IMG/VR virus record: IMGVR_UViG_2617270976_000018
Source: a virus
Lineage: Duplodnaviria > Heunggongvirae > Uroviricota > Caudoviricetes
Direction: 5' to 3' (one strand)
DNA length: 12,354 bases
Below the pieces are notes generated by a model. That model was not told the origin of the DNA. It ran no database searches and saw nothing but the letters and a program-made list of their open reading frames with translations. The position numbers and the translations under genes were made by a program. Shown in pieces: positions 5,567 to 6,506 of the stretch. The stretch's first letter is position 1. The number at the start of each line of letters is the position of its first letter.

Positions 5567-5930
5567 CTGATTTGTATTGTCTGAAGTTGTTTTTACGTTA
5601 AGTTGATGCAGATCAATTAATACGATACCTGCGTCATAATTGATTATTTGACGTGGTTTGATGGCCTCCACGCACGTTGTGATATGTAGATGATAATCAT
5701 TATCACTTTACGGGTCCTTTCCGGTGATCCGACAGGTTACGGGGCGGCGACCTCGCGGGTTTTCGCTATTTATGAAAATTTTCCGGTTTAAGGCATTTCC
5801 GTTCTTCTTCGTCGTAACTTAATGTTTTTATTTAAAATACCCCCTGAAAAGAAAGGAAACGACAGGTGCTGAAAACGAGCTTTTGGGCCTCTGTCGTTTC
5901 CTTTCTCTGTTTTTGGCCGTGGAATGAACA
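5567..5930 (+). other. Lambda-type cohesive end site (cos): cosQ, cosN (12-nt cohesive end GGGCGGCGACCT at 5742-5753) and cosB with Nu1-binding R elements
   Basis: 5567-5741 matches the lambda right terminus as recalled (...GATAATCATTATCACTTTACGGGTCCTTTCCGGTGATCCGACAGGTTACG). It is followed directly by the lambda left terminus GGGCGGCGACCTCGCGGGTTTTCGCTATTTATGAAAATTTTCCGG. R-like elements lie at about 5783-5796, 5851-5865 and 5891-5906. Confidence 0.85.
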
Positions 5931-6506
5931 ATGGAAGTCAACAAAAAGCAGCTGGCTGACATTTTCGGTGCGAGTATCCGTACCATTCAGAACTGGCAGG
6001 AACAGGGAATGCCCGTTCTGCGAGGCGGTGGCAAGGGTAATGAGGTGCTTTATGACTCTGCCGCCGTTATAAGATGGTATGCCGAAAGGGATGCTGAAAT
6101 TGAGAACGAAAAGCTGCGCCGGGAAGTTGAAGAACTGCGGCAGGCCAGCGAGACAGATCTCCAGCCAGGGACTATTGAGTACGAACGCCATCGACTTACG
6201 CGTGCGCAGGCCGACGCACAGGAGCTGAAAAATGCCAGAGACTCCGCTGAAGTGGTGGAAACCGCATTCTGTACTTTCGTGCTGTCGCGGATCGCAGGTG
6301 AAATTGCCAGTATTCTCGACGGGATCCCCCTGTCGGTGCAGCGGCGTTTTCCGGAACTGGAAAACCGACATGTTGATTTCCTGAAACGGGATATCATCAA
6401 AGCCATGAACAAAGCAGCCGCGCTGGATGAACTGATACCCGAACACGGCACTGGTCGGCGTGCAGGTGGACTCGGAGCAGTTCAGCAGCCAGCAGGTGAG
6501 CCGTAA
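5931..6506 (+). CDS. nohQ: Terminase small subunit Nu1 homolog; C-terminal about 10 residues replaced by out-of-frame J-derived sequence (deletion fusion)
   Basis: [47 protein letters not shown]... is near-identical to lambda Nu1 as recalled through ...AALDELIP (about nt 6440). It then diverges into [20 protein letters not shown], read from the J gene in the wrong frame. Confidence 0.85.

Follow-up and report, generated by a model that had tools for sequence, protein, structure and literature searches.

The window, by which we mean the whole 12,354-nt stretch of DNA analysed here (IMG/VR record IMGVR_UViG_2617270976_000018), carries a region that by its sequence is the cos-nohA segment of Qin (Kim), the already known cryptic lambdoid prophage of E. 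coli that is inserted in ydfJ. The gene order is that of the K-12 annotation (cspB, essQ, ydfR, rrrQ, rzpQ, cspI, gnsB, ydfO, ynfO, nohA ... pinQ, ydfK, ydfJ'), and both the insertion in ydfJ and the gene set of the Qin late region are present. Left of cos there are solely K-12 Qin genes (cold-shock and lysis genes, gnsB, ydfO and ynfO), and the pinQ invertase is the sole recombinase within the window. The int end of Qin falls beyond the window, and intQ is a pseudogene in K-12.

Positions 332-6439 of the window were 99.95% identical to Qin of K-12 MG1655, with differences at 3 of 6,108 positions (722, 1101 and 4130, none of them within cos or Nu1; 0.05%), and positions 8885-12354 were 99.6% identical (14 of 3,470 positions, 0.4%). 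Given this unequal divergence from K-12 to the left and to the right, the replaced J segment or its vicinity is the probable place of a recombination breakpoint. The first 331 positions of the window are the end of an IS1 that abuts the Qin late region, and since homology to K-12 starts at 332, directly after it, the cspF side of the prophage has been cut off or interrupted in this strain. No complete RefSeq E. coli genome matched the window over its full length.

In BLAST comparisons with lambda (NC_001416), positions 5380-5741 matched lambda 48141-48502 with 98.3% identity and positions 5742-6439 matched lambda 1-699 with 97.9% identity, the two segments together being collinear with the joined lambda ends. 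In a base-by-base alignment, 5406-5794 did not differ at a single base from lambda 48167-48502 plus 1-53 and had no indel, a stretch that includes cosQ, the cohesive end and the spacer (Table 1). The position of cosQ, upstream of cosN, corresponds to lambda 48473-48479, where cosQ was reportedly placed by Wieczorek and Feiss in 2001. With no indel in the I2 spacer, the spacing of cosN and cosB is preserved, and cosB exhibits the R3-I1-R2-R1 layout in lambda order and orientation at an unchanged distance of R3 from cosN, a distance that is critical (Murialdo and Feiss 2022). Seven differences from lambda were found in cosB (bp 54, G>A; 73; 102; 134; a 1-nt deletion at 138; 145; 176). All seven occur together in phage PhiR42_1 (PV340562), and most of them also in other phages; the two in I1, at bp 73 and 102, are both common among deposited phages, and the bp 54 variant in R3 is found in one deposited phage genome only, that of PhiR42_1. 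Every base of cos is accordingly matched either in lambda or in PhiR42_1. R3 spans bp 50-65, TerS contacts bp 55-63, and mutations affecting packaging are located at bp 56, 58 and 59 (Murialdo and Feiss 2022). The change at bp 54 is situated just outside the contact segment, and the contact bases, including bp 56, 58 and 59, are unchanged, as are R2 and R1 in their entirety. A preliminary description of this DNA had claimed a complete and lambda-like cos, had proposed the base-by-base alignment, and had named point mutations in cosN or the R sites that are known to abolish nicking or binding by terminase as evidence that would speak against it; the alignment bears the claim out and no such mutations were found. 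Judged from these letters, cos would be a fully competent packaging site of lambda specificity.

Table 1. Features of the cos-nohA region in the window, deletion junctions of other Qin alleles, and right-hand partners of the recurrent Nu1 breakpoint. Lambda positions refer to NC_001416.
Feature	Window position	Strand	Remarks
Lambda right-end homologue	5380-5741	+	lambda 48141-48502; 5406-5741 identical
cosQ, GGGTCCT	5712-5718	+	identical to lambda
12-nt cohesive end GGGCGGCGACCT, cosN core	5742-5753	+	sole copy in window
cosN-R3 spacer (I2 region)	5754-5790	+	identical to lambda
cosB R3	5791-5806	+	lambda bp 50-65; single change at bp 54 (window 5795)
I1 region (IHF site), separating R3 from R2	5807-5849	+	changes at lambda bp 73 and 102
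cosB R2 (AGAAAGGAAACGACAG on + strand)	5850-5865	-	identical to lambda 109-124
cosB R1 (CTGTCGTTTCCTTTCT)	5891-5906	+	identical to lambda 151-166
nohA-type truncated small terminase subunit, 191 aa	5931-6506	+	Nu1 residues 1-170 plus 21 unrelated residues
Deletion junction TACC	6436-6439	+	lambda 699 (Nu1 codon 170) joined to lambda 16142 (J codon 213)
Tail-tip gene J, internal fragment	6440-8884	+	without codons 1-212 of 1132
Tail-fibre assembly gene, last 152 nt	8885-9036	+	lambda 22387-22538; K-12 Qin homology resumes
Truncated ydfJ	11071-12354		
Qin allele, K-12			lambda 719 joined to stfQ (residue 176)
Qin allele, 17MR471			697 joined to 15688
Qin allele, NCTC9040			two joins, 697 to 2179 and 3464 to 16137
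Qin allele, LAU-OXA			697 joined to 17306
Qin allele, PEC1009			427 joined to 16351
Qin allele, 1332KP			956 joined to 13440
Qin allele, strain 789			2721 joined to 11828; nohA and A intact, W to H missing
Right partners of 697-699 in A			2179, 2248, 2489
Right partners of 697-699 in J			15688, 15811, 16142, 16490, 17306
Right partners of 697-699 elsewhere			stf 19797; several non-lambda tail-fibre sequences

The first 170 residues encoded by the nohA-type gene are those of lambda Nu1 save for K48R, A75T and L132I, and the corresponding codons are identical to those of K-12 nohA. The Pfam family Phage_Nu1 (PF07471) was matched over its full length (1-164 of 164, E = 2.9e-101), residues 1-98 and 1-68 matched the Nu1 N-terminal structures 6HN7 (chain B) and 1J9I, respectively, and E24 and K35 are unchanged, all in line with the earlier statement that the winged-helix domain and most of the protein have been kept. 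The last 11 native residues (171-181, GLLSEYIEQSG) are lost and are replaced by residues read from J in the wrong frame up to the stop at 6506, and the native C-terminus that binds TerL (gpA) is thus absent. The C-terminus of TerS is the TerL-binding domain, and TerS without its last 30 residues binds TerL poorly (Murialdo and Feiss 2022). The predicted NohA keeps the DNA-binding and self-association parts and lacks the extreme C-terminus, which falls within the TerL-binding region.

The Nu1 sequence gives way to J at 6439/6440, the position where a fusion of Nu1 to the middle of J had previously been placed (about 6440). The position was right and the rest of that claim was not, since the join is out of frame and enters J in the first fifth of the gene; with J read in the wrong frame, the "fusion" is a junction and not an in-frame chimera. 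Relative to the lambda map 15,442 bp (700-16141) are missing, as measured from the alignment, a figure that replaces the earlier estimate of about 15 kb, and gene A and the portal, capsid and tail-shaft genes are gone, as the preliminary description held. Beyond the junction, BLAST matched positions 6433-7840 to lambda 16135-17542 inside J, 7825-8504 to lambda 17782-18461, and 8885-9036 to lambda 22387-22538, and no further homology to lambda head or tail-shaft genes was detected in the window.

The J remnant has an in-frame gap of 255 bp (85 codons) at 7840/7841, as compared with lambda 17543-17797, that is not seen in REL606, 17MR471 or strain 789. The J fragment ends inside the C-terminal receptor-binding domain, and positions 8505-8884 are not lambda-like at the DNA level. 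Over 8505-9036 J enters the start of that domain (Pfam Ig_GpJ_C positions 15-49 only) and is followed by the tail-fibre assembly gene, of which only the end is left. The second deletion, from J to that gene, differs from the J(17608)::stf(21824) junction that is common to FDAARGOS_1337, NCTC9040, 1332KP, LAU-OXA and PEC1009.

K-12 Qin occupies the same ydfJ locus with the same gene order, and its cos and Nu1 codons 1-170 match those of the window at every base. In K-12, however, Nu1 continues to residue 176 and is joined to stfQ, whereas in the window residue 170 is joined to J codon 213, with about 2.4 kb of J sequence retained that is absent from K-12. On the other hand, most of tfaQ is lost in the window, and the IS1 end is found in the window and not in K-12 Qin. 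Since the two carry different deletions, neither allele is the parent of the other. The joint explanation that we consider best, and hold with good confidence, is that the locus is the Qin cos-nohA segment, that one TACC-mediated deletion removed lambda 700-16141, and that what remains is a passive relic of decay and not a mobilisation device.

As had been stated before, self-packaging is impossible with the content of the window alone, gene A and the head and tail-shaft genes mentioned above being absent. The preliminary description had further proposed that the element is a cosmid-like substrate for a lambda-type terminase, a term that we reserve for a pair of like-oriented cos sites at a distance of about 38-52 kb or for a replicating circle that forms concatemers. 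The layout lends this proposal no support. Terminase remains on the cosB end, from which it translocates, and a downstream cosQ-cosN is required for termination (Feiss 2015). With cosB to the right of cosN, packaging would run rightward, away from the Qin body to the left of cos, into a remnant of about 5.3 kb with tail-fibre sequence, pinQ and ydfK, and then into ydfJ, ydfI and beyond. The cosN is the only one in the 12.3-kb window, no second cosN or cosQ-cosN was found there, and packaging would leave the prophage body behind. A second cos 38-52 kb downstream, beyond the window, may exist, for example in another lambdoid prophage.

A lambda-type terminase, if present, should bind and nick this cos, and at most one-cos packaging rightward into ydfJ and ydfI, without proper termination, would then be expected. 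Such an arrangement resembles the lambda docL (one-cos) particles, which are reported to start at a chromosomal cos and to run rightward into the host without a terminal cos. In contrast to the situation in the window, where the terminase of a helper would be needed, docL particles were described for induced, replication-competent lambda prophages making their own terminase. A double-strand break at cos would probably also stimulate recombination between the relic and an incoming phage, giving rise to lambda-Qin hybrids as documented for DLP12. In hybrids of this kind (lambda qin111) the late region of Qin can reportedly take the place of that of lambda.

DLP12 (qsr') is similarly a defective prophage that has retained a lambda-type cos and a Nu1 homologue (cos-nohD), and preferential recombination with lambda next to cos has been shown experimentally for it: half of the crossovers in lambda-DLP12 hybrids adjoin cos, and the DLP12 nu1 is functional in lambda (De Paepe 2014). 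DLP12 differs from Qin in that it integrates at argU and has another lysis cassette, and in K-12 it retains nohD at full length together with part of A.

Selection for helper-dependent mobilisation had been offered earlier as a reason why cos and the DNA-binding module of Nu1 were retained; on this reading the element or its flanks would be packaged and transferred, like a satellite or cosmid, by a lambda-type phage that superinfects or is co-resident. The intact cos sequence speaks for this idea, and so do two precedents. The lambdoid prophage Sp4 of O157 Sakai has a good cos and a non-working terminase of its own, and is packaged nevertheless, probably by the terminase of Sp14 at an identical cos (Asadulghani 2009). 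Gram-negative PICIs (e.g. EcCICFT073) are likewise chromosomal and devoid of packaging enzymes, and use a lambda-type cosN that is cut by the TerL of the helper. However, Sp4 still carries most of its morphogenesis genes and undergoes amplification, excision and circularisation, whereas the head genes of Qin are absent and K-12 Qin was not seen to excise when lambda infected the cells (De Paepe 2014). PICIs excise and replicate, encode an Rpp that re-targets TerS, and have a cosB-like site of their own, whereas the cosB of the window has the specificity of the helper itself and PICI or satellite genes (integrase, replication, helper-sensing regulator, Rpp or own TerS) were not found among the K-12-identical genes of the window. 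All these closest precedents of packaging in trans involve excision and replication. Mobilisation of Qin is also opposed by the missing downstream cosQ-cosN in the window, the prediction that a head would receive relic and host DNA instead of the Qin body, and the pseudogene state of intQ in K-12. Nor is cos retained by every Qin (see below), and Nu1 does not appear to be spared by deletions: in the IMG/VR samples, endpoints inside Nu1 (lambda 237, 261, 347, 425, 427, 583 and 623) were per nucleotide at least as dense as those in gene A. The variable sites in cos were no fewer than in its flanks, a result of low power because intact phages and relics are mixed in the sample and the Qin alleles scarcely differ among themselves. 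On balance we regard selection for mobilisation as very unlikely, and the cos-nohA segment would instead be a passive relic of prophage decay.

To the same preliminary description the retention of cos could alternatively be simply the result of a recent deletion, and a comparison of the junction across strains had been proposed as a means of dating it. The Nu1::J junction of the window was found in 65 of 5,426 complete E. coli genomes and is not private to this strain. Among the carriers are lineages of E. coli B, E. coli C and ATCC 8739 as well as isolates from poultry, pigs and humans. The junction is located at the Qin locus (ydfJ) in FDAARGOS_1337 and others, and in E. coli B REL606 at the DLP12 locus (argU, between intD and ompT), in a prophage with exactly the same junction. 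A comparison of positions 13092-16060 of the REL606 locus (L001) with window 5380-7832 gave an identical Nu1(699)::J(16142) join. The occurrence of one junction at the DLP12 locus in E. coli B and at the Qin locus elsewhere implies segment exchange between the two resident prophages. The flanks of other copies diverge by 1-2.5% from the window, and with so many genomes, two loci and divergent flanks the junction must be either old or moved between prophages by homologous recombination. A simple recent deletion thus comes closer to the data than mobilisation does, but not as an event private to this strain. A neutral deletion of very recent date, confined to this strain and without any history, would agree with the near identity of the left flank to K-12 (3 differences in 6.1 kb) and with the ordinary 4-bp microhomology at the junction; against the shared junction, its two loci and the diverged backgrounds it is hardly credible.

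The other Qin alleles form a series of deletions with different endpoints (Table 1), and retention of cos is not universal among them. In strain A30 (positions 7193-9520 of locus L216) the lambda right-end homology of Qin stops at lambda 48075 and is followed by an IS3 and non-lambda DNA that is annotated as a 5'-truncated terminase gpA pseudogene, and this Qin has neither cosN nor Nu1. In a rank-spread sample of complete genomes, Qin with cos accounted for about 13 of 60 rows, and Qin ending in ydfO or ynfO without cos for 4 of 60.

Several Qin alleles break at the same place in Nu1, lambda 697-699 (..GAACTGATACC), 12-14 nt upstream of the start codon of gene A, with the break directly after GAACTGATA or after GAACTGATA(CC). 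In the window this site is 6430-6439 (lambda 690-699), and it was seen in loci L004, L013, L015, L016 and L018-L036. We therefore call it a hot spot. A scan of the complete IMG/VR for this Nu1 prefix followed by non-Nu1 sequence returned 19 loci, 17 of which had junctions at lambda 697-702. These represent 10 junction types, and the complete genomes bring the number of distinct deletions with the left endpoint 697-699 to at least 13, in Qin-type prophages and in other lambdoid ones, all in the same orientation. The density of endpoints at 697-699 was roughly a hundredfold that in the rest of A, a rough estimate among the matches listed, from samples that were not selected for the site. A search with an 18-mer hot-spot pattern in one genome per species gave only chance hits (40 of 40, without Nu1 homology upstream), and 18 nt is thus too short for a 596-Gb collection.

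Other sites are also reused: two junction types, one of them that of K-12, fall at 719/720, two at 956 and three at 3464-3469, and each of 2179 and 13440 serves as a left end as well as a right end. The recurrent sites resemble G-R-W-TA-Y-C(C), as exemplified by CTGATACC, GGGTATCC, GGATATCC and GGTTATTCC. Outside the Nu1 site, 7 of 17 junctions had a microhomology containing TA, compared with 2% expected from simulation (P about 2e-8). TA-centred, quasi-palindromic sites on the lambda map were noted at 237, 697, 719, 956, 2179, 3465, 4450, 4495, 13440, 13981, 22107 and 22292. The K-12 nohA junction at 719 is a second, less-used site that is also present in locus L082. The stfQ fragment of K-12 starts with (A)ACCGCGYTGACAGACAATACGCAGG, a sequence preceded by four unlike contexts that all end in ..AA (L011, which is K-12, L029, L089 and L168); it may mark a hot spot for right-hand breakpoints or the edge of a module in tail-fibre genes.

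We tentatively suggest that 697-699 is a preferred endpoint of a TA-centred deletion process that has independently generated at least 13 relics with cos and Nu1(1-169/170) in enterobacterial prophages, either through a hitherto unrecognised nicking or joining activity at G-R-W-TA-Y-C-like sites or through selection for a TerS that is blind to TerL, although we would not give this reading an even chance. Some of the events may be sequential rather than independent, as LAU-OXA could have arisen from an NCTC9040-like allele via GATAA[A/C]GGGGC, and the hot spot could be due in part to selection rather than mechanism. With deletions starting so preferentially at this point in Nu1, the survival of cos and Nu1(1-170) would be best explained by the start site itself, and the regularity of the breakpoint would be the reason why such relics are common, an account that we prefer to selection for mobilisation.

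Selection could in principle act on the truncated protein. A NohA that binds cosB and self-associates but cannot recruit TerL might serve as a decoy that poisons packaging of lambda specificity, and selection for it would explain truncations at residue 169/170. At least 13 deletions, and the K-12 type at residue 176, take away the native C-terminus but spare the parts for DNA binding and oligomerisation, which is compatible with such a role, as is the poor TerL binding of shortened TerS cited above. The NohA of the window has, however, lost only 11 residues; the new tails of 12 to about 41 residues share nothing; and since endpoints within Nu1 are per nucleotide at least as frequent as those in A, the integrity of Nu1 is not apparently under selection. 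The nucleotide-exact reuse of 697-699 and the TA signature at other sites suggest a mechanism rather than selection acting on the protein, and we consider a selected decoy unlikely.

Known activities were compared with the TA-centred pattern. A pseudo-site for a Pin/Gin-type invertase was rejected: the core ACC GG GGT is similar, but the crossover would have to occur after GATACC whereas most junctions end in GATA, and the partner sites, judged by eye, have no dyad symmetry. Secondary integrase sites were dismissed as the Qin att core GAAATCCATAA is unlike the hot spot, which is also used at other loci. A Chi-directed end fitted no better, given that GCTGGATG (lambda 682-689) has two mismatches to Chi and that the endpoints are 8-10 nt away, not 4-6. 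EcoRV-like cuts were discarded because the true GATATC at lambda 650-655 had no junction in the sample of sequences starting in Nu1. RusA, which cuts 5' of CC, and a pseudo-cosN nick fit the pattern in part and are pure speculation.

Taken by itself, the finding as originally given re-describes a textbook cryptic prophage, Qin with its nohA, and carries little weight. The unusual point is that nohA is broken at the same three bases in many strains, the rest being an ordinary relic. By analogy with DLP12, the cos sites of cryptic prophages may be real targets for incoming lambda-type terminases, and would in this way shape the sites at which hybrid phages form, phage mosaicism, and gene flow from "dead" prophages. 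Prophage decay is in this case non-random, with many deletions starting from the same three Nu1 bases and with recurrent junctions that are TA-centred. If the hot spot is what we suggest, then with either cause the cos-nohA relics would be a recurrent, directed outcome of prophage decay and not chance survivors, and if a specific enzyme or lesion underlies it, it would offer a testable route to prophage domestication.
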